Below, in pieces: positions 1-17,897 of a DNA stretch of 19,014 bases; within the stretch, counting starts at the first letter, position 1, and every line of letters starts with the position of its first letter. The DNA lies in IMG/VR virus record IMGVR_UViG_2645727905_000013, positions 1 through 19,014 of that record; one strand, given 5' to 3'. The notes under the pieces are model-generated. The model worked only from the letters and a program-made list of their open reading frames with translations. It had not been told where the DNA came from and did not search any database. Source of the stretch: a virus. Its lineage: Duplodnaviria > Heunggongvirae > Uroviricota > Caudoviricetes. The position numbers and the translations under genes are program-made.

Positions 1-534
1 TCACTTTTCATCCGTCGTTGACACATGCGGGTCGTCGTAAGCCAGTGCCTGCTGCTGACCGAGTATTTTGTTGATTACCTCAATCACCGTTTCACCGTGA
101 TCAGGCTGGACATCCGGAATAACACCCGACGGCGCACCGTTGTTCACCACCTCAATGCCGAAAGGCGCAGCAAGCGCCTGCGCAATCTGTACCAGCGATC
201 GTCCGTTAAACTGTGTCGATTCGGCTGCACAGTCAATCAGGTCAGCGGTCAGACTGCGTCCGGCAATACCGGTGCTGACCGAACGGGCATCGTAACGAAC
301 GGGCGTCGCCTCCACCCAGCCGGTGATCACCAGCTCATCACCAATCAGAACTTCCACTTTTGAACCGTTTTTAATACGCGGCTGAAGCGTGGTGATACAC
401 TCATCTCCCGGCCACTGGCGGGTGATCTCCACACTGAAATCCCGTGCCAGCCGTTCAATACCGGCACCGATGCGCACCGATGTCCAGCCATTCCACTCCC
501 GGCCATTTACCCGTAGCGTGACGTTATCGTTCAT
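1..534 (-). CDS. Mu-type tail/baseplate protein (gpP-like position), short, possibly truncated
   Basis: 177-aa ORF whose ATG overlaps the stop of the upstream DNA-circulation gene (tcat at 531-534). It occupies the position that follows gpN in Mu-type tail clusters. Its stop codon is at window bases 1-3. Family assignment is by context only. Confidence 0.4.
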   Translation of the reverse strand: MNDNVTLRVNGREWNGWTSVRIGAGIERLARDFSVEITRQWPGDECITTLQPRIKNGSKVEVLIGDELVITGWVEATPVRYDARSVSTGIAGRSLTADLIDCAAESTQFNGRSLVQIAQALAAPFGIEVVNNGAPSGVIPDVQPDHGETVIEVINKILGQQQALAYDDPHVSTTDEK

Positions 535-1859
535 TGCACTGGCACCTTCAGAGGGATCACCGGCACAAAGCCGGGATGTGTAATGGCATTGCGCCGGATA
601 ATGTCCGCGTCATGCGCCGCGTTATCAAACCAGGTCGCCGCCAGCACCAGCGCGGGTAAAACCTCATCCGGCGTACGCTGAATGATCCGCGCAGACTGTT
701 CAAGGCGCGTGTTGATATCCGCATTCAGATCTGCTTTCACCCGGCGCAGCGCCAGAAACAGCACATCACTGGTTGTACGGGACAACTCCTTATCAATTGC
801 CGTATTCAGTGTGTCGCGAATGTCGGTCAGCTCTTCCCACGTTGGCAGGTCAACCGTGTTTTTCACCGCCGGTGCATTGTTCAGTGCCGGATGCGTGACG
901 GAAGGCCAGCCGGTGCTCTGCGCGGGTGTTGTTGACTGCCCCACTGCGGCATTCTGCATCACCGCGGAAGTTGTTGGCGCAGGCAATCGGGTAACGGCAT
1001 ACGCCGCTTCGCTGATTGCAGTCGTACGAAGGGTGCTGGCAACCACGTTACGCTGCTGCGTCGCTGTGGCGGTGGTTTTACTGTCCGTTTTCCAGACACC
1101 GCGCGGTTGCAGATCGCTGCCGAGGCTGACACCGGAAAGCGTTTTGATCATGGTGACCAGGTCGCTGGCGTTACCATAAAGGCGCTTCCCGGTACGCCAC
1201 ATTTTCTGCACCTGCTCAACGAAATTTTTGCCTGACGATGGCGGCGGCAGAAGTACCGAGATATCCCCCTGCAACAGCCTGGCGGCATCCGATACAGCAG
1301 AATCCACCACTTTCATCGCATCAGAAACATACCCCAGCATTATGCTGGCATTACCGATAACGTCGTTCTGCACAAAATCTGCCACGCCATCGATACTGAA
1401 ACCACTGAAACTGTCACTGATGCAGTCATCCAGTGCAGAACAGGATGACATCAGCGTCTGCGCCGTCGCCGCACCTGATGTGGGGTAAGAGAGTTCTCCC
1501 GCTTCGACAAACTTCAGGTCAAAGCGGACAATACGCCCTTCACTCTTCGATGTGCTGACCCGAACCTCCCCGTCAACACAGACTTTCAGCTCACCGTATG
1601 TCGGATGGACAAGCGTGCCGGGACCGGGTTTATTCAGCGCATCAATCAGGCGATCGCGCTGGTCAAAGCAGTCATCTCCCACCACATAAGCCGTGATGGA
1701 CGGGCGGAAAGTGACTTTTCCCAGATCTTCGGTATAGGGTTTGTCGCGGTTCGGGTATTCGTGCGTTTCCACACGACGACCGGTTCCCGCACTTTCTTCT
1801 TCAACCTTAAACGGCACACCGCGAAATGACGCGTCCTGAAGTCTGTCTTTCCACGTCAT
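531..1859 (-). CDS. Phage DNA circulation protein (Mu gp43/N-like)
   Basis: N-terminal MTWKDRLQDASFRGVPFKVEEES... matches the recalled signature of the Mu N / DNA-circulation N-terminal domain. Start placed at the internal ATG (1857-1859), which has a GGAG 7 nt upstream; the ORF-track start at 1901 has no SD and would include the upstream hairpin. Confidence 0.7.
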   Translation of the reverse strand: MTWKDRLQDASFRGVPFKVEEESAGTGRRVETHEYPNRDKPYTEDLGKVTFRPSITAYVVGDDCFDQRDRLIDALNKPGPGTLVHPTYGELKVCVDGEVRVSTSKSEGRIVRFDLKFVEAGELSYPTSGAATAQTLMSSCSALDDCISDSFSGFSIDGVADFVQNDVIGNASIMLGYVSDAMKVVDSAVSDAARLLQGDISVLLPPPSSGKNFVEQVQKMWRTGKRLYGNASDLVTMIKTLSGVSLGSDLQPRGVWKTDSKTTATATQQRNVVASTLRTTAISEAAYAVTRLPAPTTSAVMQNAAVGQSTTPAQSTGWPSVTHPALNNAPAVKNTVDLPTWEELTDIRDTLNTAIDKELSRTTSDVLFLALRRVKADLNADINTRLEQSARIIQRTPDEVLPALVLAATWFDNAAHDADIIRRNAITHPGFVPVIPLKVPVQ

Positions 1860-1874
1860 ATAAACTCCGTACAT

Positions 1875-1896
1875 AAAAAATCCCACCGGAGTGGGA
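1875..1896 (-). terminator. Possible weak intrinsic terminator/attenuator between tape-measure and DNA-circulation genes
   Basis: On the minus strand: 6-bp stem tcccac/gtggga with a 4-nt loop, followed immediately by a T6 run. Confidence 0.3.
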
Positions 1897-1919
1897 CTCA
1901 TTAACAGATTAATTTTTCA

Positions 1920-2717
1920 TTACCTGCCAAAGCGCGTATAGCCAACATCATGGCTGACATCAAAACCGCTGGATCGCGTTTCCATAACCCGCATACCCGG
2001 AGGCGAATTCACAAAAGAGACCTTGATCTCACCATCAACTTTTGGCGCAGAAGCTTTGTTAATCATGAAGGGGGTCGGGCCTGTGACATCGGAGGCGTTG
2101 TTTGACTGAGCCGGATCTACCGCCGGATAAGGTGTGTATCCCCGCGCCGGTATTCCCGTCCCATAAGCATCATAAGCACCCGCGCCCCACTGCGCAGAGT
2201 TAATGGCATCGACCGTGTCACCGGAACTGTCGGTAAACCACTCAATAATTGGCTTCAGCTTGTCCCACATATCCTGAAACCACTTAACAACCGGCCCCCA
2301 GTTATTGATCACCATCCCCAGCGGCGACCAGGCAAAAACTTTCTTAAGGAGTTCCCAGCCGGCCTCAAAATAAGGACCAATGGTTTCCCAGAGTTTCTTA
2401 AAATAAGGTCCGACAACATCCCAGTTAGTGATAATTAATCCCGCAGCCAGGGCTATCGCCGTCGCAATCATGCCAATCGGCGTCATCGACATGATCCTGC
2501 TGACAATACTGATGGCACCGCCAACGCCCATCAATCCCAGTTTCAGAATCGCAAGACCGGCAGCAAGCCCGACGACGCCGCGAATAACCCGGGGATTTTC
2601 ATCCGCAAACTTCGTGAATTTCTCCCCCAACTCCCCCAGCCATTGCGTGATATTTTTAGCGTCACCAGAAAATGCGCCGCCAATAGCTGCAAGACCGTTA
2701 GTTGCGGTCCCCGTCAT
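1920..2717 (-). CDS. Tail tape measure protein, C-terminal segment (downstream of in-frame TAG)
   Basis: 265-aa ORF with a long Gly/Ala-rich hydrophobic stretch typical of tape-measure C-terminal regions. It is in the same frame as ORF 2724..3623, separated only by TAG (2724-2726) plus two codons. Confidence 0.55.
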   Translation of the reverse strand: MTGTATNGLAAIGGAFSGDAKNITQWLGELGEKFTKFADENPRVIRGVVGLAAGLAILKLGLMGVGGAISIVSRIMSMTPIGMIATAIALAAGLIITNWDVVGPYFKKLWETIGPYFEAGWELLKKVFAWSPLGMVINNWGPVVKWFQDMWDKLKPIIEWFTDSSGDTVDAINSAQWGAGAYDAYGTGIPARGYTPYPAVDPAQSNNASDVTGPTPFMINKASAPKVDGEIKVSFVNSPPGMRVMETRSSGFDVSHDVGYTRFGR

Positions 2718-2723
2718 TGCCTC

Positions 2724-3623
2724 CTACAGGTTGGACAGCGTACCAAGCTGTGCCTGAACACGTTTATTCAGGCTGGCCTGTTTATTCATCTTCTGCTGGA
2801 TCTGATCGTAACCATCCTTCCCTTTATCGATCAGAGCATTGACCACCTGAAGGGTTTCGGCATCATCACCAAATATTGCCTTAAGTACACCTGTTCGCTT
2901 AACGTCGGTCAGTTTTCGCAGCTTTGCCAGTTGCCTGAACATGTTATCAAGACCGCCAAAACTCCCTTTGCCGTCAGTAAAATCGAGCTGCACTCCGAGT
3001 TTCTGGCGGGCCATAACTTTATTAACGTCCCTGATTTTCTTAACGCTTAATCCGGACTGGATAACTTTTCGCAGGGCATTACCTGCCGACTCCCCGTTCA
3101 TCCCCATCTGATCCATCATGACGCTGATGGGGGCAAGGCTCTGTGCAGCCTGAAGACCATCCTTGTTCACCATCTTCAGAACAGAACTGGTTTTAGTGAA
3201 GAAGGACAACATGTTGGTATCGTCAACGCCCAGATAAAACGCCTTCTGGATAGTGTCGAACAGCCCCATCATGTCTTCTGACGCCGTTCCGGTAGCATCC
3301 TGCATCTTTGCAGCAAACTCAGCAGCCGCTTCCGGTGTTTTTTTCAGTTGTACCGCAAGATAGGCTGTCGCTTTACCCACACCACCCAGAATGTTTTCTG
3401 CCGGGATCCCCTGACGCACCAGCATCTGCATCATGTTCTGGAAATCAGCCGTTGTACCGGGTAGCTGGTTACCCAGGCCAATAGCCAGTTTATTGATGTC
3501 CTGAAAGCGCTTTCCGACCTCACCGTTCGCATCCATCATGGCAACTTTCAGCCCGGTATCCATTTCCGCATAAAACAACGGAACCAGCGTATTCGACGGA
3601 ATGGTGTTAAAGCTTATCGTCAT
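2724..3623 (-). CDS. Tail tape measure protein, N-terminal segment (ends at in-frame amber codon)
   Basis: 299-aa alpha-helical, Gln/Lys/Ala-rich ORF located upstream of the DNA-circulation gene as in Mu-type tails. Minus-strand read across the junction is ctg tag gag gca atg. Confidence 0.55.
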   Translation of the reverse strand: MTISFNTIPSNTLVPLFYAEMDTGLKVAMMDANGEVGKRFQDINKLAIGLGNQLPGTTADFQNMMQMLVRQGIPAENILGGVGKATAYLAVQLKKTPEAAAEFAAKMQDATGTASEDMMGLFDTIQKAFYLGVDDTNMLSFFTKTSSVLKMVNKDGLQAAQSLAPISVMMDQMGMNGESAGNALRKVIQSGLSVKKIRDVNKVMARQKLGVQLDFTDGKGSFGGLDNMFRQLAKLRKLTDVKRTGVLKAIFGDDAETLQVVNALIDKGKDGYDQIQQKMNKQASLNKRVQAQLGTLSNL

Positions 3624-3785: not shown

Positions 3786-4139
3786 TCAGGAAGGAAGGGT
3801 TATTTCGGTGTGATGTTCGATATCGCCGTCAGGCCCGTTACCGGGCTCGAGATAATCAACATCAATCGCCAGCGTTTGCAGTTCATCCAGACTGTTCAGA
3901 TCATCCTGCTGGCGGGTATCGTCTTCGGTCAGCTCGCTGATGATCGAAAAATCGAACTGATAAATCAGCTCATGACGATTCAGATCCAGCAGCGTGCCGC
4001 CGTCATAGGTAATCGGGTTACCGCACGCTTCCGGGTTCCAGCCCAGCAGAGCCTTAAAGAGCATCTGCCGGATATCCGTTCCTTCTGACCATGCCACCAT
4101 ATCCAGGAAAGCTTTACGCTGGGAATTTAGTATCTGCAT
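3786..4139 (-). CDS. Endolysin remnant: lambda R-type N-terminus (about 22 aa) fused to unrelated acidic sequence
   Basis: MQILNSQRKAFLDMVAWSEGTD closely matches the recalled lambda R N-terminus MVEINNQRKAFLDMLAWSEGTD; the remainder does not resemble R. The gene sits immediately downstream of the holin, as R does. Confidence 0.4.
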   Translation of the reverse strand: MQILNSQRKAFLDMVAWSEGTDIRQMLFKALLGWNPEACGNPITYDGGTLLDLNRHELIYQFDFSIISELTEDDTRQQDDLNSLDELQTLAIDVDYLEPGNGPDGDIEHHTEITLPS

Positions 4140-4142
4140 AAA

Positions 4143-4469
4143 TTACTCCTTAGAGCCACCAAACTTGTTACCGATCACTCTCATTGCAGCCCCACGAATT
4201 GCATCGACACCAATCAGCCCAACACCGCCACCAATGGCAACAGAAAGAGATTTAGGCCATCCGACATACTCAAGAGCGGATGCAAAAGTCAGCGTCAGAG
4301 CACCACAGAGCAAAATCTCGAGCGTTTTTCGCTTCCACCCACCACCACCGCCAAAATAGGCAATGCGCAATCCAGCCATAACAATCGACATAATCACTGC
4401 GCCAAGAGGCGTATCTCCACGCCACCAGCTCTGGAACAACTCCAGCCAGGTATTTGGGTTATGAGGCAT
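4143..4469 (-). CDS. Holin, lambda S family (class I)
   Basis: 108 aa with hydrophobic helices and a charged C-terminus. Segment LRIAYFGGGGGWKRKTLEILLCGALTL parallels lambda S [24 protein letters not shown]. It lies directly upstream of the R-like ORF. Confidence 0.65.
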   Translation of the reverse strand: MPHNPNTWLELFQSWWRGDTPLGAVIMSIVMAGLRIAYFGGGGGWKRKTLEILLCGALTLTFASALEYVGWPKSLSVAIGGGVGLIGVDAIRGAAMRVIGNKFGGSKE

Positions 4470-4622
4470 TTGTAGTTATCTCTCACCTCGCCGATACAGG
4501 AGGTGTAAATTGAGGGAGTACCACGAACCGCAAATCAGAAGCGGAAACGTAAAAGAAGTCGAGCCAATGGATAAGTACTAGATAGACCAAGCCCAACGAA
4601 TACCAAGGCCCAGAAAAGACAA

Positions 4623-4645
4623 AACCCGCTCAATGGCGGGTTTAA
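4623..4645 (-). terminator. Intrinsic terminator hairpin upstream of holin (tR'-like candidate)
   Basis: Perfect 8-bp inverted repeat aaacccgc/gcgggttt with a 6-nt loop; on the minus strand it is followed by a T-rich tract (tgtcttttct). Confidence 0.4.
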
Positions 4646-4725
4646 GCTGTGTGGCGAAGTAACCACTCTTAACAGATTACAAGAATTTTTGCGGACCGCG
4701 TTAATGATTTTTAATCCCAAAGTCG

Positions 4726-4754
4726 TATTATTCGTTTTTTACTGTAGGAGTTAA
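4726..4754 (-). promoter_or_regulatory. Candidate sigma70 late promoter (pR'-like) reading toward the lysis genes
   Basis: Minus strand: TTAACT (-35), 17-nt spacer, ATAATA (-10). Located about 75-95 nt upstream of the hairpin terminator and about 250 nt upstream of the holin. Confidence 0.3.
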
Positions 4755-4759
4755 CAGGT
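4740..4759. promoter_or_regulatory. LexA (SOS) box-like motif TACTGT-N8-ACAG
   Basis: Sequence tACTGTaggagttaACAGgt has the conserved CTGT and ACAG arms at canonical 8-nt spacing, with an imperfect central region. It sits 10 nt upstream of the KAP NTPase ATG and overlaps the opposite-strand promoter candidate. Confidence 0.3.
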
Positions 4760-4766
4760 TTATATT

Positions 4767-5609
4767 ATGTTAGATACACTATCGTTCACTGAACGTGACG
4801 AGTTCCAACGAAGAAACATCGCTGAAAATATCATCAAGTTGCTAAAACCAGAGGCAGACATTTCACCACTGGTAATAGATGGCGCATGGGGAACAGGGAA
4901 ATCAGAATTTAGTATCAAACTGAAAAATCTCATTATTGAGCAAGAACCCGAATCTAAAGTTGTTTATATTGATGCCTTTAAAGGGGATCATGCAGAATCT
5001 CCATTACTTCTCATAACCTCTGCAATTGCCAGCATTTTGCCTGAGGAAGAAAAACAACACTTCATTAAGAGGTCTCTTCCTGCAATTCGATTTGGTTTAA
5101 AAACTGTACTAAAAGCTGGTGCAGGTTGGTTTTTACGACAGGAGGCTAGTGAAGTTGCCGAAGAATTCCAAGATGCGATGAAGAAAGCAAGCAATGCAGC
5201 AATAGATGGGACTATTGAAAGTTTGCTTGAAGACCATATGGAATCAGAGAAAAACATAAATTCACTTAAATCTTGCATCGAAAGTATTTCAGAAAATCAA
5301 AAGATAGTAATTATAATTGATGAATTAGATCGATGTAAGCCGAGTTTTTCAACAAATGTCATTGAAACAATAAAACACATTTTTGACATCAATAATGTCT
5401 TTTTTATTTTAGTTACAAACACAGAACAATTAAGAGCATCGATAAATCATATTTATGGTTATAGTATTAACTCACAAAAGTATCTTGACAAGTTTATAAA
5501 ATATACCATCACGCTTCCAGATACATGTTTGATAAATGGTCACGACGTATGTAAAGCCTCTGTTATATATTGGAATTACCTTGTAGAAAAAAACAAGATC
5601 ATTAAATGA
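4767..5609 (+). CDS. KAP-family P-loop NTPase, N-terminal part (Walker A and B present); gene appears frameshifted
   Basis: Walker A VIDGAWGTGKSEF (GxWGxGKS type) and Walker B IVIIIDELDRC (DELDRC) are the KAP NTPase signatures. AT-rich composition. Encoded on the opposite strand between Q and the lysis genes. Confidence 0.7.
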   Translation: MLDTLSFTERDEFQRRNIAENIIKLLKPEADISPLVIDGAWGTGKSEFSIKLKNLIIEQEPESKVVYIDAFKGDHAESPLLLITSAIASILPEEEKQHFIKRSLPAIRFGLKTVLKAGAGWFLRQEASEVAEEFQDAMKKASNAAIDGTIESLLEDHMESEKNINSLKSCIESISENQKIVIIIDELDRCKPSFSTNVIETIKHIFDINNVFFILVTNTEQLRASINHIYGYSINSQKYLDKFIKYTITLPDTCLINGHDVCKASVIYWNYLVEKNKIIK

Positions 5610-5757
5610 AATCAATAGCTTATCAGGTTATTTTATCCGTGATTTAATTCAACGAACCAACTTATCATTACGTGAAACACAAACATTTTCACGCAATCTT
5701 AACATTTTTCAACTGTTAAACGACAATGAAGACAACAGTAGTGATCGTTTTATAAAT

Positions 5758-6099
5758 ATGATCTTTGTCGTAGCTGTCTTCATACATTGCTTTGGTGACA
5801 AGGAAAAACTAAAACACGAAATTACCGCTGAATCTATATCTTATTTAGCAGACCTGCTTAAAATAAAAGAGATACCTTATTCTTATGAGATGAGTTCGAA
5901 AATCCCTAAAATATCAATTGTATTCTTTGGAATAATTAAAGACAGTATTACTCTTAATGAGCGATTTGCTCCTAAAAGTGATGAAGAACTAAAAAGATTC
6001 ACCAAAGTTTATACTGATTATGACCACCTAAATTTTTGGAGTACTACACCCAGAGAGTTATTGATAAAATATATCAATCAAATGTCATTCATTCAGTAA
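5758..6099 (+). CDS. Probable C-terminal continuation of the KAP NTPase gene in the +1 frame
   Basis: This frame is open from 5587 (just after a TAG at 5584-5586) through 6099, overlapping the end of the upstream ORF. Deleting one A from the A7 run (5587-5593) fuses the two ORFs into about 443 aa. The first ATG is only at 5758. Confidence 0.4.
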   Translation: MIFVVAVFIHCFGDKEKLKHEITAESISYLADLLKIKEIPYSYEMSSKIPKISIVFFGIIKDSITLNERFAPKSDEELKRFTKVYTDYDHLNFWSTTPRELLIKYINQMSFIQ

Positions 6100-6101
6100 A
6101 T

Positions 6102-6126
6102 AATACGCCCCTGCATGGGGCGTATT
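6102..6126. terminator. Bidirectional intrinsic terminator between convergent KAP moron and Q gene
   Basis: Perfect 10-bp stem aatacgcccc/ggggcgtatt with a 5-nt loop, flanked by T-rich tracts on both strands (tttattaaa on plus; ttattta on minus). Confidence 0.55.
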
Positions 6127-6129
6127 TTA

Positions 6130-6495
6130 TTAAACGTCCAAATCTAATGTTAGATCTAGCATGGAAAGGCAGCCATCAATAAATCCTTCGGCTAACTGTA
6201 TTTCTATACGTATCAATTTCTCATCCTTTCCACGCGCCTTTGCAATCTTACGCTTGGATATTCTGTATAAATAATGTGCCACAAGAAGCGAATGCTCATA
6301 AGGTCTTTTTTGCTTTAGACGAGCAAGACAACCTTCAATAATTAATGCATCACTATCCGAACAAGCCAAGCGTTTCTTGCTGGTATAGGGAAGAAGTCCC
6401 TTAAACCCAGCAGCTATAGGTGAATAATCAACACCAGAGTTATCACTCGCAGCCCATGCTCCCCAACGTTCAAGTATCATCTGAATATCACGCAT
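6130..6495 (-). CDS. Late-gene antitermination protein Q (QuuD / phage 82 Q-like family)
   Basis: MRDIQMILERWGAWAA...IAAGFKGL closely matches the recalled N-terminus of E. coli DLP12 QuuD. Start placed at the ATG at 6493-6495, which has an AGAAAGG SD; the ORF-track start codon at 6508-6510 is TTG. Confidence 0.75.
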   Translation of the reverse strand: MRDIQMILERWGAWAASDNSGVDYSPIAAGFKGLLPYTSKKRLACSDSDALIIEGCLARLKQKRPYEHSLLVAHYLYRISKRKIAKARGKDEKLIRIEIQLAEGFIDGCLSMLDLTLDLDV

Positions 6496-6512
6496 CACCT
6501 TTCTCCACAAAA

Positions 6513-7508
6513 TCAGGCCAGTACGCCAATTGCCAGCGCACGATCGATAAAACGAAATATCAGCTCCAGCTGAGAGCCATACTTCTCTTCAAATGCCACG
6601 GTATCCGCATGCAGCTCGTCGTGATGCTTTCTGCACAAAGGCAACACAAAGAGGTCATGCGCTTTTGTACCCATTCCACCCTGACCGTGGCCTATCAGAT
6701 GGTGGGGATCATCAGCAGGCTTTCCACAACATGCACACGGCTGTGTCTTAACCCAGCGCGTGTACTTTTCATTAACCCAGCGGCGGCTTTTTGGGCGTAA
6801 CATAAAAGACTCCGGCGACTCCGGATCCACTTTCAGCGCCAGCACCTTTTTCGCTTTATCCAGGATGATGCTGGTGGCAGGAACCGAAGGCACAAGGTCA
6901 CTTTCCCGGGTGACAGACGGCACAACAGGTTTCGGTAATCTCAGCGCCTTACGGGCTACGCTTTCAGGTAAGGCATCCGCCAGGTCATTACGAATCAGCC
7001 ACCAGCACAGTTCCGGCATTGTCACGGCATGGTTATCATCAAAATCGAGATCCCGACGGACTACAGACAACACCCAACGGGCACAGTTATCCGTTGCCAT
7101 TGATTCCAGCCGCTCCGTGAACTGATCACGTAACTGATTATCGCAGTGCCAGCACAGACGGATTGCGCCCGGCGCGTGTCGCATTGTGGTCATGTTCTCG
7201 CTGTGCCAGTCGGAATGAGGCCACTGGCAGCCTTTTTCACGAAGTAACCAGCTTTCAAGACATTCCACCCCACCAGCACGACGAATCACTGCCTCATTAC
7301 GGAACACGGCCCGAACGGCAGGATCATCCGCCAGCGGTTGTGATGCCGCCGGAACGGCACCACTGGCGAAAGATGAATAACGTTCCGGCTCAGGCTCCAG
7401 CAGGACACGCCCCTGCATAAACAGGGGCATCAGCTCTGAACCTGGCCTGAACAATACGATCCCCATACGCGGGGCAATTTCAGGGGTCAGTAGCGCTCTC
7501 ACGGTCAC
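6513..7508 (-). CDS. DUF968-like phage protein with C-terminal HNH/zinc-finger-like motif (YdfU-like)
   Basis: C-terminus CACCGKPADDPHHLIGHGQGG...CRKHHDELH has an HNH-type Cys/His pattern. It sits immediately upstream of Q, as ydfU does relative to quuQ in the Qin prophage (recalled). Confidence 0.5.
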   Translation of the reverse strand: MTVRALLTPEIAPRMGIVLFRPGSELMPLFMQGRVLLEPEPERYSSFASGAVPAASQPLADDPAVRAVFRNEAVIRRAGGVECLESWLLREKGCQWPHSDWHSENMTTMRHAPGAIRLCWHCDNQLRDQFTERLESMATDNCARWVLSVVRRDLDFDDNHAVTMPELCWWLIRNDLADALPESVARKALRLPKPVVPSVTRESDLVPSVPATSIILDKAKKVLALKVDPESPESFMLRPKSRRWVNEKYTRWVKTQPCACCGKPADDPHHLIGHGQGGMGTKAHDLFVLPLCRKHHDELHADTVAFEEKYGSQLELIFRFIDRALAIGVLA

Positions 7509-7509
7509 C

Positions 7510-8319
7510 TCAATGAACGGTATCGAGCAGCTTTAACAGCTCAGGGAATCGGGATTCGAAGAAATGCGGCTGCGTCTCGCGCGGATTTGCGGGACTGGTG
7601 ATGTTCTTGCCGAACATGCAGCCTTTCGCCGTCAGCGACCAGAATTTTTTGATGTTGTTAATCGCAGTGCGGCTGTATCGTTCACGTTGTTCAACGATCC
7701 CCAGCTTCGCCATCTGGTGATATGCCTGATTAGCTGTCAGGCGGATACCATACTGCTTCAGCAGTGCACTCAGTGACAGCGTGGGGCGGCTTGAGCCATC
7801 AGGCGCGTCAGCAGGAGCATCAATGGCATAGCGCGGTGCCAGATTCGGTAAGCCAACAGCCTCCTGGAGTTTCTGACAGGCACCAAGCACTGAAGAGTTA
7901 GACAGGTTTAACTCCCGGCGCATAAAGTCCAGCAGGATCACGCCAGCCTGCATCTTGTCAGCAGCCTGTCCGGATAATTTTTCCGGTGCGCTGGTTACCA
8001 TATCGAAAGTACGGATCACCTTCAGATGGAATGACGGGCTGATCCACATTGCATAGGCATACACCAGTTCCTTGCAGACATATGTTCCCCGTTCATTTCC
8101 CCCATGAATCACACTCACCGGGTCAACACCCAAATTCTGGGTGTTGGTCAATTCATGAACAAGCTCAACAGTTTGTTGGCTGGAAAGAAACTTTCCCGGC
8201 TCCTTGGTTCTGGCATTTGCACCAGATGCTACTGCTGCGCGATGCAGATCGTTCAGGCTGTAACGCCCATAAGCATCACGACGAACTTCAATACCATCAA
8301 TGACCATCAGATTATTCAT
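7510..8319 (-). CDS. KilA-N domain protein (antirepressor-like)
   Basis: N-terminal MVIDGIEVRRDAYGRYSLNDLHRAA... is typical of the KilA-N domain. Start placed at the ATG at 8317-8319, which has a GAGGAG SD about 8 nt upstream. Confidence 0.65.
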   Translation of the reverse strand: MNNLMVIDGIEVRRDAYGRYSLNDLHRAAVASGANARTKEPGKFLSSQQTVELVHELTNTQNLGVDPVSVIHGGNERGTYVCKELVYAYAMWISPSFHLKVIRTFDMVTSAPEKLSGQAADKMQAGVILLDFMRRELNLSNSSVLGACQKLQEAVGLPNLAPRYAIDAPADAPDGSSRPTLSLSALLKQYGIRLTANQAYHQMAKLGIVEQRERYSRTAINNIKKFWSLTAKGCMFGKNITSPANPRETQPHFFESRFPELLKLLDTVH

Positions 8320-8338
8320 ACTTCGTTTCTCCTCTTGA

Positions 8339-8728
8339 TCAGGCGGCTGCACCCGCCGTTTTCTCGTACTTACTGATAGTGATCTCGACCTTCCCTTCCG
8401 GGATAACCGGTCCCCACTCCACCAGCATTCTTTTCACCTGACTGTCGTCTTCCCACACACCCGCGTGGGTCAGGGCGTCAAACAGCGCCTTGTTATAGTT
8501 GTCCAGATCGCGGATCCGGTTATCCGGAGGAAACAACACGATCTCCACTGAAGCAGGTGCCGACGTTGGTTTTGGCAGACGACGTAACTGCTCAACTATT
8601 GCTGCACACGCTGCGCTCTGGAATTTGCGCCCCGCCGCGCTTATCAGGCTCTTACCTGCAAACGCCCCTTTGTTGGGGTGTCGCCAGTACGTGTTCACGC
8701 TGGGCGGGAAAGGCAGGATCAGCTTCAT
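8339..8728 (-). CDS. rusA: Holliday junction resolvase RusA
   Basis: 129 aa; ...PPSVNTYWRHPNKG...RDLDNYNKALFDALTHAGVWEDDSQV... parallels E. coli RusA (PPSNNRYYRH...[27 protein letters not shown]). Its ATG overlaps the stop of the upstream gene. Confidence 0.8.
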   Translation of the reverse strand: MKLILPFPPSVNTYWRHPNKGAFAGKSLISAAGRKFQSAACAAIVEQLRRLPKPTSAPASVEIVLFPPDNRIRDLDNYNKALFDALTHAGVWEDDSQVKRMLVEWGPVIPEGKVEITISKYEKTAGAAA

Positions 8729-9051
8729 ACTTTCAGGCCCCTCTCATGTAACCAGTGGGCTGCACGCAGCCTGGCGTTTTCCTCACCGGCAAGCAGTGAG
8801 CGGATAATCCCGACCGCCTCGCTGTCGTCGTCCTTCACCGCGGTATGAAGCGTTATCCCCCGGGCCACGCCACGCTTTATCGTGATGACGCCTTTTTTCT
8901 CCAGCGCACGAAGATGCTCCACCGCTGCATTCACCGAACGGTATCCCAGCATGGTTGCCACCTCCTGATTGGTTGGTGGGAAGCCACGTTCTTTCTGATA
9001 AGAAATCAGCATATCCAGCACCTGCTGCTGGCATTGAGTTAACGTCGTCAT
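8725..9051 (-). CDS. LexA N-terminal DNA-binding-domain-only protein (no S24 peptidase domain)
   Basis: MTTLTQCQQQVLDMLISYQKERGFPPTNQEVATMLGYRSVNAAVEHLRALEKKGVITIKRGVARGITL aligns with the LexA N-terminus ([68 protein letters not shown]). It retains an AGE linker motif but ends about 25 aa later. Start (ATG at 9049-9051) overlaps the upstream stop (TAATG). Confidence 0.65.
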   Translation of the reverse strand: MTTLTQCQQQVLDMLISYQKERGFPPTNQEVATMLGYRSVNAAVEHLRALEKKGVITIKRGVARGITLHTAVKDDDSEAVGIIRSLLAGEENARLRAAHWLHERGLKV

Positions 9052-9545
9052 TAAGCCCCCACGTAATTCCCTGACAGATACCACTCTTCACCCGATGCAG
9101 CGCGCTTGCTGCTTTTCCGTAAGCACCGCTCACGACGCGCCAGAAAATTGTTTCGTTCTGGCTGGGAGTGGCTTTCACGGAATGCCGCCATCCACACGGT
9201 TGCAGCACGACGAAATAAGCCCCTGGACTCCAGTTCTTCCGCCTGGCGGGCCAGGCACAAAATCACCCGCGGGTCGTTAGTGCCGACATAGAAATTGCGC
9301 ACAGGTCTGGTTTCACGAACTGGTTGCCGTTCCGCCTCCGGAGATATCTTTGTCTGGCGCGGGAAATGTCTGCGTGTATCCCCTTCACAACGGTGAGCCA
9401 CACGCCCACTCTGACGTAACTTGCTTGCTGACTGCAGAACGCGCTGCCGTGAGTAACCTGCAAAAGCATCAGCAATGTCTCCGGAAGTACCCCCTGGATG
9501 GGCTTCAATGAATTTCTGAACTTCATTCAAAAGACTCATAATCAC
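9051..9545 (-). CDS. Hypothetical regulator; C-terminal region PerC/ANR-like
   Basis: 164-aa ORF whose ATG overlaps the stop of the replication gene (ATGA). C-terminal ARQAEELESRGLFRRAATVWMAAF...RRERCL resembles the recalled PerC/Pch motif GLWRRAAxRW. The N-terminal half may be a winged helix. Confidence 0.4.
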   Translation of the reverse strand: MIMSLLNEVQKFIEAHPGGTSGDIADAFAGYSRQRVLQSASKLRQSGRVAHRCEGDTRRHFPRQTKISPEAERQPVRETRPVRNFYVGTNDPRVILCLARQAEELESRGLFRRAATVWMAAFRESHSQPERNNFLARRERCLRKSSKRAASGEEWYLSGNYVGA

Positions 9546-10831: not shown

Positions 10832-11442
10832 GCGTTAGTTTCTCCACAACCAGAAGCAATCGACGCCACGACGCCCGGAGCTGCACACTCGCGGGCGTCA
10901 TTACTTTCTGAAATGCAAAAAATTTTGTAGACAAGTGCTGCATGCTCCTGCAGCTTCGAAATTGAGAGATACAGCTCGTCGTTAATTGCTGTCTTCTCAT
11001 GCGGTTCCACTACACCGTCTTCAATTGCTGAACGAATCTGTTTTGAATAACTGCCGATCTGTTCAATGACTTCCAGCAGGCGCTGGTTAATATCGGCGTT
11101 GTCCACATCCTCGACGTCAGGAAGAGACACAAAGACGCCATTTGCAGACTGCGCCACAGCGTCAGCAATGAAGTGAGTTCCACCAGCACGTTGCAAAATC
11201 ATTGCCCATCCCAGCGGGAAAATCTGATCGCCATCTGCACGAAGGCGGTTAAATAATGCGTTCTCTGTTACATCCAGCCAGTCAGCTGCTTCAGCGTAAC
11301 CACCCGGCAACGCTGCGATAGTTTTTCTGACAGCTTTCACGTACCACTCAGGCTGTTTTTCTACTTTCCAGTGATGCTTACCCACGGTTAGCCTCATCGT
11401 TCTGTGGTTTCTGTTAATCGATTTATCCATTAGATTTTTCAT
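10828..11442 (-). CDS. Hypothetical early protein in the cII/YdaT position downstream of cro
   Basis: Long ORF directly following cro. Start uncertain: ATGs at 11440-11442 and 11428-11430 overlap or abut the cro stop; the ORF-track start at 11499 would overlap cro by 77 nt. Function not recognised. Confidence 0.4.
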
Positions 11443-11623
11443 AAAGCTCAGGTTTAAATGGCAACCGTCCGCAAGTTCTATATGCAGCTTCTGCTGCACG
11501 TCCTTTTGGAATTAACTGGCCCGGACGGTTTCGCCACTGATAAACGGCTTCAGTTGTTATGCCGAAAAAAGCAGCAACTTTCTCAATACTGCCGAAGTAG
11601 CTTTCGATATCGTCAGTTGTCAT
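11423..11623 (-). CDS. cro: Cro-like HTH regulator
   Basis: 66-aa HTH protein (GITTEAVYQWRNR) transcribed divergently from the CI-like repressor, with a GGAGGG SD upstream. Confidence 0.7.
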   Translation of the reverse strand: MTTDDIESYFGSIEKVAAFFGITTEAVYQWRNRPGQLIPKGRAAEAAYRTCGRLPFKPELYEKSNG

Positions 11624-11720
11624 ACGCCCTCCAAACTAAGTTTTATTAGATGCTAATTACAAATCTATCTTTGGTCAACAAAAACTAAGATTACTTAGTA
11701 ATTAAAGAAATGGTGCTCCT
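11624..11720. promoter_or_regulatory. cI-cro intergenic operator/promoter region (OR-like)
   Basis: 97-bp AT-rich divergent intergenic region containing the palindrome ACTAAGattaCTTAGT (11684-11699) and a further ACTAAG copy (11635-11640). A possible minus-strand promoter is TTGACC, 17 nt, TAGCAT. Confidence 0.5.
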
Positions 11721-12347
11721 ATGGAAACGGTTGGTCAGCGTATAAAAGCTCTGAGAAGAGTAACCAGAACGTCCCAGAAAGAATTGGGTAAATTTTGTGG
11801 AGTAAGCGACGTTGCTGTGGGGTACTGGGAGAAAGACATCAATACCCCTGGTGGGGAGGCACTTTCGAAATTAGCGAAGTTCTTCAATACGTCAATAGAT
11901 TACATTCTTTATGGTGCTGAGTTTGAAGGCAAACTCGTCACAAACATGCGCAGAGTTCCTGTAATATCGTGGGTTCAGGCTGGGCAGTTTACTGAGTGCA
12001 GGGCAGCAGAAGTGTTTAGTGAAGTGGACAAGTGGGTAGATACATCATTAAAGATTGGTGATAACTCATTTGCATTAGAGGTTAAAGGTGACTCCATGAC
12101 TAACCCTAATGGCCTCCCAACAATACCAGAAGGCGCAACAGTGATTGTAGATCCAGATGCAGAACCTCGTCATGGAAAAATAGTCATCGCTCGACTTGAT
12201 GGAACAAACGAAGCTACAGTAAAAAAATTAGTCATCGATGGCCCTCAAAAGTTTTTAGTGCCATTAAATCCTCGGTATCCCAACATCCCTATCAATGGTA
12301 ATTGCCTTATCATTGGTGTAGTCAAAGGAGTTCAATACGAACTCTAA
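11721..12347 (+). CDS. cI: CI-like prophage repressor (HTH-XRE N-domain plus S24 LexA-type autopeptidase C-domain)
   Basis: N-terminal HTH (QKELGKFCGVSDVAVGYWEKD), a putative Ala-Gly cleavage site (VQAGQF), catalytic Ser in GDSM and Lys in TVKKL. Confidence 0.85.
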   Translation: METVGQRIKALRRVTRTSQKELGKFCGVSDVAVGYWEKDINTPGGEALSKLAKFFNTSIDYILYGAEFEGKLVTNMRRVPVISWVQAGQFTECRAAEVFSEVDKWVDTSLKIGDNSFALEVKGDSMTNPNGLPTIPEGATVIVDPDAEPRHGKIVIARLDGTNEATVKKLVIDGPQKFLVPLNPRYPNIPINGNCLIIGVVKGVQYEL

Positions 12348-12357
12348 GACCTCTCTT

Positions 12358-12430
12358 TTCTAACTAAGGCACCGAACTAAGAAAAGTTTGGTGTTTTCTC
12401 TTGCCATAATAACTAAGTTAAGTTAGATTT
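12358..12430 (+). promoter_or_regulatory. Candidate OL/pL-like region downstream of cI (repeated ACTAAG motifs; possible promoter)
   Basis: ACTAAG at 12363-12368, 12377-12382 and 12413-12418, the same hexamer as in the cI-cro operators. Possible promoter TTGCCA (12401-12406), 17 nt, TAGATT (12424-12429). Confidence 0.25.
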
Positions 12431-12534
12431 TATGTCAAAGATAACGAACAGGCAGGACGCGCACGAAGTAGCCCGCCCGGTACGTACGAAGACCGGGATG
12501 ATTCGTTAGCGGATGATTTCAGTGGAGAGAATAG

Positions 12535-12843
12535 ATGAATGAGCAGGATTTGAAGCATGTGATCGCATTGTTGCTGGAAGACGCTAAACGTTTGCAGCAG
12601 ATAGAGCCAAATGCAGGCACTGAGGCCCGTATTTTGTTAGCAAAACAGGCATTAAAGACTTGCGGGGCGCAAGACCCTGATCGAACCAAGTTCATGAATT
12701 TCATGGCTAACACGATCACCCCACTGCCATGCAATGGAGAGAGGGTTAGCCGTGTTTATCACGACACAATGGTTAAGGCATTAAGAATCGAGCTTGATGG
12801 GCTTAGGCGTAAGATCGTGATGAACAAAATCGTTGCCAACTAA
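12535..12843 (+). CDS. Hypothetical immunity-region protein
   Basis: 102-aa ORF with a GGAGAG SD at appropriate spacing; first gene downstream of cI. No family recognised. Confidence 0.4.
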   Translation: MNEQDLKHVIALLLEDAKRLQQIEPNAGTEARILLAKQALKTCGAQDPDRTKFMNFMANTITPLPCNGERVSRVYHDTMVKALRIELDGLRRKIVMNKIVAN

Positions 12844-13122
12844 GGAAGCAGACGGAAGTAAGCATGCGCTTTGTTCAAATTTGCAGACAAATATATTTGC
12901 GTCAACACCAGCACTGTTAGCAATGGAAAAAGTTTGATCAAGGATTTGTTGGCAGTTCATTGTGCTTTTGAGGATATATCCCTCTGGAATCAGTCTGCAG
13001 CAGCTATCGTCAGACTCTTTGATTGTTTTCTGGTACAGAAAGTTAAGCATTAATTCTTCAAATTTTTTGGTCTGTTCGGCTGTTGCTTCAAACAGACGAA
13101 CGTGAACATAAAACTGGTTCAT
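12781..13122 (-). CDS. Hypothetical protein encoded antisense to the early-left operon (immunity-region moron candidate)
   Basis: ORF with an AGGAAA SD 5 nt upstream of the ATG at 13120-13122 (protein MNQFYVHVRLFEATAEQ...). Relatively AT-rich. Convergent with 12535..12843, overlapping it by 63 nt. Confidence 0.35.
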   Translation of the reverse strand: MNQFYVHVRLFEATAEQTKKFEELMLNFLYQKTIKESDDSCCRLIPEGYILKSTMNCQQILDQTFSIANSAGVDANIFVCKFEQSACLLPSASLVGNDFVHHDLTPKPIKLDS

Positions 13123-13401
13123 TAGATTTCCTTGCTGGCTGTGTGAGAACTCCAGCATACCACCGAGCCTGAAGTGGTGAAAAGACAGGCAATAGTTTCA
13201 TTGCTGTGTGTAGTCTTGGCGGTACCAGCTTGTACCCTTGCTTCCGGCTGGTACCGTCCTTTTTACAAAACAGAGAAGAGTATCACCGGACGACGGGCTC
13301 ATAACCCAATCCATCCGGGCGGCTGCCACCGCAGGTGTTCTTCTCTGTTTTGTGGAGAAACCAACCGACCTTGCAGGGTCGATATGATGAGGAGCAGCAA
13401 A

Positions 13402-16976: not shown

Positions 16977-17897
16977 ATGTTACATAAAAAAACAACACAA
17001 GAAAATGTAGCTTTTGGACTTGCTGTACTTAACTACTATCTTCGTTTCAATTCTAAAGCGAATTTACAGGACGCTAATGTAAGTTCAGAGGAGTTGATAA
17101 GTAATTTAGTAAATATTCTGAATGATAGTGATTTTATCTGCACATCGGAAATCTCAGCAAATTATCCAGGAATAGATGCTATCGATAAAGTAAATAGACT
17201 CGGGCTCCAGATAACACATACAAAAACCAATTCAAAAATTAATAAAACAATAGATAGAATTCGCGAAAATAAAGTTAACAATGAAATTGGTGTGCTATAT
17301 TTTTTCATTACATCAAGAAAGCAGAAGAAATACACTATCACAGCACAATGCCCAAATCTAAACGTCACAACAAATAACATATTGGACTTTGATTCCCTAG
17401 CTGAACTGCTTTCGAAAAATCAGAATAAACTGGCTCAAGCAGAAGCAGAACTTATTAAAGCAATGCCTCGTCTCTACCAAGATGGAAAAGCACGACATGA
17501 GGCTATGCTTAATAGTATTCTTGTGGCCAGAAATGAATTAGATAGAAGAGTATTCACTGCTGATAAAATTTTAGAAGAACCAGAGGAAATGCTTTTATCC
17601 CTCAGGGAAATGAGAATAGCCATACAAAAAGCAGGAATAATGAATGAAGCTAATTCTGTTGTATCTACTTCATTTAAAAAAATAATTAAAATTATTAATG
17701 ATGCAGAGGGTCAAATTGCAAAAAAACATACCAGTGGATATAAAAAATATAAGGCCAGAATATTTCCCTCGTGGGATTATACTGATAGAGATGATTGTTT
17801 AAATATTTTAATGGGGATAAGAAAAGATGTTTTAGACCAAATAGATATTATTGACATTGAGATCAATAAACTGAAAGGGTTTCTTGGAATACGGTAA
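16977..17897 (+). CDS. Hypothetical protein with SMEK-like N-terminal domain and helical C-terminal half (candidate defence-associated)
   Basis: 306-aa AT-rich ORF. N-terminal region (...SANYPGIDAIDKVNRLGLQITHTKTNSKINKTIDRI...GVLYFFITS) resembles, from memory, the SMEK-type domain pattern (AIDLGD...IAFQVTS). C-terminal half is predicted helical/coiled-coil. SD AAGGTGG upstream. Confidence 0.45.
   Translation: MLHKKTTQENVAFGLAVLNYYLRFNSKANLQDANVSSEELISNLVNILNDSDFICTSEISANYPGIDAIDKVNRLGLQITHTKTNSKINKTIDRIRENKVNNEIGVLYFFITSRKQKKYTITAQCPNLNVTTNNILDFDSLAELLSKNQNKLAQAEAELIKAMPRLYQDGKARHEAMLNSILVARNELDRRVFTADKILEEPEEMLLSLREMRIAIQKAGIMNEANSVVSTSFKKIIKIINDAEGQIAKKHTSGYKKYKARIFPSWDYTDRDDCLNILMGIRKDVLDQIDIIDIEINKLKGFLGIR

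Follow-up and report, generated by a model that had tools for sequence, protein, structure and literature searches.

Downstream of the cI repressor gene in a 19,014-nucleotide (nt) stretch of tailed-phage DNA (IMG/VR record IMGVR_UViG_2645727905_000013), we found two small convergent genes, ymfJ and ymfI. This full-length stretch is called the window here; its coordinates are used throughout, and its guanine-cytosine (GC) content is 46.6%. Sequence comparison identifies the pair as a swap-in cassette at the start of the early-left operon of a lambdoid prophage of the e14/SfV/ST64B type. In our preferred reading, to which we assign a probability of roughly 50%, ymfJ and ymfI form an excludon cassette of the early-left slot, in which YmfI would belong to the lysogenic state and YmfJ would be an early lytic protein. 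Both genes had already been named and are uncharacterised. What is new is the probable placement of YmfI in the GhoS superfamily, the bounded slot that receives opposite-strand genes, and a structured leader RNA in front of it.

The initial annotation had described a 102-amino-acid (aa) plus-strand open reading frame (ORF) with a good Shine–Dalgarno (SD) site and a convergent, AT-rich minus-strand ORF of about 113 aa with its own SD site, and both descriptions held. GGAG lies ~9 nt ahead of the ymfJ ATG, AAGGA precedes the ATG at 13122, and the GC content of ymfI is 39.8%, below that of the window. The minus-strand ORF spans 12781-13158 and encodes 125 aa from its first ATG (13158) or 113 aa from the ATG at 13122. 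We rejected the longer form, whose ATG lacks an SD site and lies inside a candidate -10 element; the YmfI annotated in RefSeq is the 113-aa form. The two genes overlap, a feature that the initial annotation did not mention, by 63 bp at their 3' ends, equivalent to the last 20 ymfI codons plus the stop. Neither ORF had been recognisable in that first look. Megablast against complete E. coli genomes revealed ~95.6% DNA identity between window 12443-13194 and the e14 prophage of E. coli K-12, where the matching ORFs are annotated as ymfJ (b1144, 102 aa) and ymfI (b1143, 113 aa). The e14 locus has the same gene lengths, orientation, 63-bp overlap and upstream leader RNA. Its flanks differ: the window carries another immunity type (cI and operators) and yfdP-yfdQ-yfdR, whereas e14 goes straight to ymfH-xisE-intE.

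Homologues of both genes are present in prophages of E. coli, Salmonella, Klebsiella, Citrobacter, Raoultella and Enterobacter. We compared the window with copies from Salmonella, Klebsiella and metagenomic contigs by the ratio of non-synonymous to synonymous substitution rates (dN/dS). This ratio was 0.13-0.26 for the ymfI core, at dS 0.6-1.5. Between ymfJ and its nearest diverged copy we counted 0 non-synonymous and 7 synonymous changes, and dN/dS to more distant copies was ~0.33. Within the 63-bp overlap, the ymfI frame was the better conserved and the ymfJ frame was weakly constrained (dN/dS 0.33-1.5). Both genes are real and under purifying selection. The homologues in several Enterobacteriaceae genera, together with the dN/dS values, contradict the possibility that these are chance ORFs lacking conservation in related prophages, and the earlier view of them as accessory genes beside the immunity region proved sound: they are genuine, conserved and located in a hypervariable slot. 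In NCBIfam there is an equivalog model named 'YmfI family phage protein', and both proteins fall into PHROGs families; no function is attached to any of these. A Pfam scan of both proteins gave no match, nor did a search of solved structures with sequence profiles of the two families.

Gene order and promoter sequences indicate how the cassette would be transcribed. The replication and control arm reads O-like replication protein (-), CII/CP76 (-), P22-type Cro (-, 11423-11623) and cI (+); after cI come ymfJ (+)/ymfI (-), then yfdP, yfdQ (DUF2303), a gene for a yfdR-like HD hydrolase (+), and xis and int (+). From this order, the plus strand of the window corresponds to the leftward direction of lambda. 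Repeats resembling the left operator (OL) and a promoter resembling the leftward promoter pL lie past cI (Table 1). The promoter scan identified TTGCCA (12401-12406) and TAGATT (12424-12429) with a 17-nt spacer, and one repeat overlaps this promoter; transcription is predicted to start at ~12436-12437. The repeats at 12375-12400 and 12408-12428 match operator-like repeats at 11634-11651 and 11680-11698 in the cI-cro intergenic region (repeat families D1-D3 and I1). In the equivalent region of e14, an intrinsic terminator behind the repressor gene is followed by TTGACA/16/CATAAT, and SfV likewise has a terminator after cI. Because a terminator follows the repressor gene in e14 and SfV, and the operators and promoter lie past cI, cI transcription would end here and OL/pL would come next.

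ymfJ is predicted to be the first gene of a repressor-controlled early-left (pL) transcript, taking the place of N or nun, and to be repressed in lysogens. Published K-12 data agree with ymfJ being a pL gene. Late in the SOS response, ymfJ is induced with a log2 fold change of 4.8, alongside intE and ymfM, and YmfJ protein has been detected; in an SOS-on hupAB mutant of K-12, ymfJ, xisE and ymfL go up together. The initial annotation had assigned the pair to a position equivalent to rex or sieB. The comparison with rex fails: a rex-type gene would be transcribed together with cI from pRM in the lysogen, with no operator or promoter between them, and here OL/pL separates cI from ymfJ.

The comparison with sieB fared better. 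The leader RNA marks the left edge of the slot and a boundary motif the right edge. In phage vB_EcoS-569R4, cI and yfdP match those of the window, and a different pair lies between window positions 12511 and 13201: a YdfC-like 68-aa plus-strand ORF and an overlapping 144-aa minus-strand ORF of the ECs1072 family. SfV (L002, U82619.2) contains an 81-aa ORF missing from its annotation (2805-3050, -). This ORF has an SD site, is convergent to orf33 and overlaps it, the same arrangement as in ymfJ/ymfI, and has homologues in 18 related loci. Homologues of ymfI from Salmonella, Klebsiella and other sources are always convergent to, and overlap, an ORF of 102, 124 or 118 aa that carries the C-terminal module of YmfJ (the C-module). 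They sit directly behind repressors of differing types, and the early genes that come after them vary (yfdP, Kil and KilR among others). Behind each relative of YmfJ that has only its N-terminal module (the N-module) lies a different minus-strand ORF (92, 59, 79 or 77 aa), again convergent and overlapping.

We surveyed ~120 distinct loci bearing the leader RNA (124 for motif counts), and the main fillings are listed in Table 1. The boundary motif occurs in 46 of the 124 loci, 219-1851 nt 3' of the leader RNA. In 34 of these 46, the minus strand carries GGTAT, which belongs to the TGgTAT half of an extended -10 element; the commonest completions are TATCCT, TATGCT and TATCTT. The motif may thereby give a promoter to whichever minus-strand gene fills the slot. 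In the window, the candidate ymfI promoter is followed by the SD site AAGGA and the ATG at 13122. One further filling, the 121-aa ORF (L083 and 11 other loci), is the first plus-strand ORF after the leader RNA and starts MNHLFTCSFCG.... This start is reminiscent of the N-terminal zinc-binding motif of ClpX.

Table 1. Mapped features around the ymfJ/ymfI cassette, and main fillings of the slot across the surveyed loci.
Feature	Position	Strand	Details
cI	11721-12347	+	helix-turn-helix and S24 peptidase domains
OL-like operator repeats (AACTAAG half-sites) and pL-like promoter	12362-12429	+	promoter scan, repeat comparison
Three-way-junction leader RNA	12439-12513 (conserved structure ~12443-12507, ~65 nt)	+	covariance model R1, 78.9 bits, single copy
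ymfJ	12535-12843	+	102 aa; predicted first ORF of pL transcript; predicted all-helical
ymfI	13122-12781	-	113 aa; opposite-strand gene; residues 1-83 modelled as ferredoxin-like core, 84-113 predicted disordered tail
Candidate ymfI promoter	13154-13183	-	-35 TTTTCA 13183-13178, 18-nt spacer, extended -10 TGgTATGCT 13162-13154
Right boundary motif ACCACCGAGCCTGAAGTGGTG	13159-13179		common to window, e14 and SfV despite differing slot contents
Intrinsic terminator	13218-13264	+	13-bp stem GGCGGUACCAGCU/GGCUGGUACCGUC, then U5; between cassette and yfdP
Slot filling: orf33-like (+) with 81-aa ORF (-)			18 loci
Slot filling: YdfC-like (+) with ECs1072 (-)			17 loci
Slot filling: 121-aa CSFCG zinc-ribbon ORF (+)			12 loci
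Slot filling: YmfJ (+) with YmfI (-)			6-7 loci

By analogy, ymfI occupies a sieB-type slot. Like ymfI, sieB of the Rac prophage lies on the opposite strand close to where the early-left operon begins, and it converges with a small pL ORF (ydaF). Published RNA-sequencing coverage of K-12 lists both ymfI-ymfJ and sieB-ydaF as convergent excludons. YmfI differs from the SieB of Rac, lambda and P22 in having no Pfam match, so that there is no sequence link between them, and in being predicted to be soluble rather than membrane-bound.

The YmfI family is narrow. It comprises 30 clusters at 90% identity, all of them >=75% identical to the window protein over its full length; an exhaustive profile search of 1.8 billion representatives gave 15 matches, and a scan of species-representative genomes gave 3 loci. 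The AlphaFold2 model of YmfI (mean predicted local distance difference test score, pLDDT, 72; core elements 84-93) shows a beta-alpha-beta-beta-alpha-beta ferredoxin-like core followed by a disordered tail. Its best match among solved structures was GhoS (YjdK; PDB 2LLZ), a type V antitoxin that acts as a sequence-specific endoribonuclease, and the modelled core has a Cas2-like ferredoxin fold. A BFVD fold search with YmfI returned nothing informative. The YmfI profile search also found distant prophage relatives of ~92 aa that lack the disordered tail. Two of these score above the Pfam gathering score of GhoS (PF11080), which is 21: P0160 with 28.8 bits and P0157 with 24.2 bits. Three further distant relatives match the GhoS family weakly. 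In its Rac/Qin-like prophage, P0157 fills an opposite-strand slot of the same kind. Alignment of the YmfI family with the ~92-aa relatives by hhalign gave a probability of 99.5%. On the strength of the predicted fold, the relatives above the GhoS threshold and the hhalign link, we consider that YmfI probably belongs to the superfamily of GhoS/Cas2-like ferredoxin folds. The two proteins are alike in being small (~90-100 aa) and in having this beta-alpha-beta-beta-alpha-beta arrangement with a Cas2-like fold. They differ in the extra 30-residue tail of YmfI and in genetic setting: GhoS heads a two-gene operon, whereas YmfI is prophage-borne and convergent to its neighbour.

YmfJ is predicted to be a small, soluble, all-helical protein, not a membrane peptide, and it is modular. 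The N-module (residues ~1-43, LKHVIALLLEDAKRLQQxEPNAGTEARI) is shared, at 50-95% identity, by many proteins whose lengths range from 57 to 141 aa and whose C-termini are unrelated. Its dN is 0.12-0.24, with synonymous sites at or near saturation; this combination led us to reject the idea that it is kept as DNA or RNA. The C-module (residues ~60-102, ITPLPCxG..V.RVYHDTMVKALRIEL..LR) is specific to the cassette and also occurs behind a different N-module, which begins MEFKDLP....

Our preferred reading combines these features as follows. In the lysogen, cI would hold pL off, and YmfI would be made from the outward-facing promoter in the right boundary of the slot. SOS induction would release pL, whose transcript would consist of the leader RNA and then ymfJ, continue antisense through ymfI and run into a strong terminator upstream of yfdPQR-xis-int. 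Leader RNA and YmfJ would then be made while ymfI is silenced by convergent transcription and antisense pairing. Membership of its family points to an RNA-directed role for YmfI, which would most likely be a small protein that binds or cleaves RNA. Its targets would be early phage transcripts, either leaking from its own prophage or made by a superinfecting relative, and the benefit may be tighter lysogeny, exclusion or something else. YmfI would then be an accessory gene product of the lysogenic state, following the logic of a type V antitoxin without a GhoT-type toxin. YmfJ would act early in lytic growth, with a general early function in the N-module and a C-module that may counteract YmfI.

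Several observations weigh against this scheme. In K-12, ymfI itself rises about fourfold late in SOS (log2 fold change about 2), unlike what simple silencing would give; that measurement may not distinguish the two strands. The ymfI promoter was read from the sequence, matches consensus at 8 of 12 positions and falls below the threshold of the promoter scan. The linkage between the YmfJ C-module and ymfI may merely mirror their physical overlap. For YmfI, the structural model is confident for residues 1-83 only and rests on a shallow alignment; the protein itself has no Pfam match at E<=10, and hhalign of YmfI or its distant relatives with E. coli GhoS proper was weak (0.8-5.8%), with a consistent register. 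In that register, Arg28 of GhoS, reported in the literature as the residue most important for its RNase activity, is replaced by Glu22 in YmfI and His22 in the distant relatives. Because the Arg28 equivalent is missing, the RNase activity of YmfI may be lost or changed. We found no hydrophobic small ORF with a start codon and SD site near ymfI that could encode a membrane toxin of the GhoT/OrtT type (PF10753), and no PF10753 neighbour in any related locus examined; YmfI thus lacks the ghoT partner of GhoS. A PADLOC scan gave no defence-family match for YmfJ or YmfI.

We weighed three other explanations against the same evidence. In the first, which we regard as unlikely, the cassette is a defence and self-immunity pair: YmfI would be an exclusion or abortive-infection effector expressed in the lysogen, and the C-terminal helix of YmfJ, expressed from pL, would neutralise it and so protect the phage's own lytic growth, with other slot pairs working alike. 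Consistent with this, specific pairings recur in the slot (Table 1), which is of the sieB type, as in Rac; the C-module accompanies ymfI behind two unrelated N-modules, and the YmfI clade paired with it has the extra disordered tail that the distant relatives lack. However, overlap of the 3' ends together with linkage can by itself explain the pairings, YdfC-like ORFs are also found without ECs1072, and the partner of the GhoS-positive P0157 has no C-module. The weak constraint on the ymfJ frame in the overlap and the negative PADLOC result also count against a defence pair. The initial annotation had suggested superinfection exclusion, abortive infection or a toxin–antitoxin-like pair. That direction was reasonable, and partly right, given the GhoS superfamily and the sieB-type slot; PADLOC gave no defence-family match, and the convergent, non-operonic layout is not the classical toxin–antitoxin arrangement.

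In the second explanation, which we consider quite unlikely, the genes are unrelated neighbours coupled by transcriptional interference only: ymfI would be an independent moron, possibly with a non-RNA function on a generic ferredoxin-like scaffold, and ymfJ an ordinary early gene whose C-terminus runs into inserted DNA. The slot does behave like a recombination hotspot between conserved non-coding anchors, the N-module is fused to many unrelated C-termini, the catalytic Arg is absent from YmfI, and weak constraint inside the overlap would fit this account. By contrast, the middle region of YmfJ outside the overlap is conserved as protein, with 0 non-synonymous and 6 synonymous changes between the window and locus L009 and a ratio of ~0.33 to more distant copies. 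The third explanation, a type V-like module in which YmfI is a GhoS-type antitoxin that destroys a toxic early mRNA (ymfJ or a downstream kil-type gene) and so makes leaky pL harmless in lysogens, is rather improbable: it has in its favour the superfamily assignment, the occurrence of YmfI relatives in early-left operons with Kil, KilR or DicB and the cleavage of toxin mRNA by GhoS reported in the literature, and against it the absence of a nearby GhoT/OrtT-type toxin, the soluble, helical character of YmfJ, a convergent layout unlike the ghoS-ghoT operon, the unconserved Arg28 and the lack of YmfJ toxicity data in the literature searched.

The left boundary of the slot is a structured RNA element, which begins ~6 nt past the predicted pL start. 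The initial annotation had noted a hairpin at 12455-12490 as a possible nut-like element; the hairpin is real and lies within this larger structure. Helix P1 pairs 12443-12448 with 12502-12507. P2 pairs 12452-12456 with 12473-12476 and has a near-invariant loop, ACGCSCACGAAGUAG. P3 pairs 12477-12480 with 12493-12496, has the loop GGCRUAYGAAnn (UACGUACGAAGA in the window, departing from the consensus) and is followed by a GAUGA junction. The element is 80-90% identical in SfV, SfII, SfIV, ST64B, Yersinia YeP1, Pantoea AH07, Pectobacterium ZF40 and others, and is also present in e14. Its place is constant, 100-150 bp past the repressor gene and ahead of the first early-left ORF, and none of the records annotates it. 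A 24-nt core occurs once per contig in at least 120 IMG/VR contigs. Covariance model R1 found exactly one copy each in the window, e14 and SfV/ST64B-type loci, and none in Qin/Rac-like loci. One contig (L078) has, besides an intact copy, a second, degenerate copy without the P2 loop (977-1037, -; 43.6 bits).

Covariation argues strongly for two of the three helices. Pairing holds in 95-96% of the cells of the alignment, and 9 of the 14 pairs vary on both sides. Covariation scored 0.43, whereas shuffles reached 0.12 and slid controls <=0.09. P1 variants include ACGAA/UUCGU, GCGAA/UUCGC, GUCAUC/GAUGAC and CCACC/GGUGG; those of P3 include CCGG/CCGG, CUGG/CCAG, CGGU/ACCG and UACC/GGUA. P2 showed no demonstrable covariation, its 5' strand and both loops of the element being near invariant even in a 3'-anchored search, and it is proposed from complementarity. 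Folding of the single sequence was not significant (z -0.66). Wobble statistics favoured neither strand (18 G-U against 16 A-C cells). The plus strand is favoured by the position of the element after the predicted pL start and by its direction, which agrees with that of cI in 73 of 73 loci with a cI-like gene detected upstream. Rfam 15 gave no match to the element, even when it was searched alone, and we therefore rejected a hammerhead or other known ribozyme or riboswitch. A literature search with the core sequence found no description of it.

The layout of pL, structured RNA, first gene, terminator and xis/int parallels pL-putL-nun-tL of HK022 and pL-nutL-N-tL1 of lambda. Like lambda nutL, the leader RNA lies between pL and the first early-left gene, ahead of a terminator. 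It differs in lacking boxA and a 5-bp boxB hairpin with a GNRA-like pentaloop; an N-like ORF is absent too, and cro is not followed by a second site. We rejected a nut site, and with it the nut-like interpretation of the hairpin: nothing resembling boxA occurs near 12400-12560, and the element is present once, with no copy on the pR side. Library scans of the first pL ORFs found no N-like family. A further difference from nutL is that the first pL gene here varies while the leader RNA is nearly invariant, which makes a host target likelier than a phage-encoded partner. The leader RNA is also comparable with putL and putR of HK022 and the putL-like RNA of HK639, RNAs that suppress termination independently of protein through the zinc-binding domain of the RNA polymerase beta' subunit. 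Like them, it is a two-hairpin RNA of ~65-75 nt directly past pL, with the first pL gene and then intrinsic terminators behind it; in the HK639 record, a putL-like RNA is annotated after pL and no second put copy after pR. The put RNAs differ from the leader RNA in that the latter has the closing helix P1, which gives a three-way junction, and in their conserved loops. R1 had no significant match in the HK022 immunity region (L141) or to the HK639 putL-like RNA (L142, 34187-34312), and we rejected homology to put. One tentative idea is that the leader RNA represents a new class of cis-acting, protein-independent processive antiterminator, put-like yet unrelated, with which pL transcription in phages of the e14/SfV/ST64B type would pass terminators, DicF-like ones included, and reach xis and int. 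The slot behind it would then be a hotspot for genes that the lysogen expresses from the opposite strand, such as ymfI, and each of them would be silenced once pL is active.

The terminator between the cassette and yfdP folds at -32 kcal/mol (z -2.5) and resembles the 3' hairpin of DicF, with a weak Rfam DicF match over window 13205-13264 (19.4 bits against a gathering score of 48). Genuine DicF is found at the equivalent relative place in Qin/Rac-like relatives (L013, 3473-3524; L015, 3204-3258). The same hairpin is present in 31 of the 124 loci, 0.8-1.1 kb past the leader RNA, and the SfV record has annotated terminators. Many loci contain a sub-threshold STnc100-like sequence after the DicF position; the window is without most of the STnc100-like stretch seen in SfV. 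C4 antisense RNA and isrK gave Rfam matches above threshold in SfV, ST64B and a related locus (L002, 313-501, -; L003, 242-430, -; L017, 3774-3962, +), and the Rfam scan found neither in the window.

Elsewhere in the window, tail genes (DNA circularisation protein N and a minor tail protein; 531-3623, -) abut genes of the nin-region type (DUF968/HNH, KilA-N and RusA; 3786-9545). There are no head genes between the two groups and no lysis-like gene among the subset of ORFs scanned there, and the prophage appears rearranged or deleted. A KAP-family P-loop nucleoside triphosphatase (4767-5609, +; Pfam E 6e-65), encoded on the strand opposite to its neighbours, may be another accessory or conflict gene. 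A SMEK-domain protein (16977-17897, +) is encoded just past the integrase gene, either at the prophage end or beyond it.

The slot maps where prophages of the e14/SfV/ST64B type would keep accessory genes of the lysogenic state. Its left boundary, the leader RNA, is a well-supported structured RNA with which the early-left transcripts of many enterobacterial phages are predicted to begin. Should it control elongation, it would add another answer to the antitermination problem to those given by N/nut, Q and put. The placement of YmfI offers a hypothesis of RNA binding or cleavage for an uncharacterised 'y-gene' of K-12, and suggests that prophages repeatedly encode GhoS-like proteins on the opposite strand with no GhoT toxin beside them.

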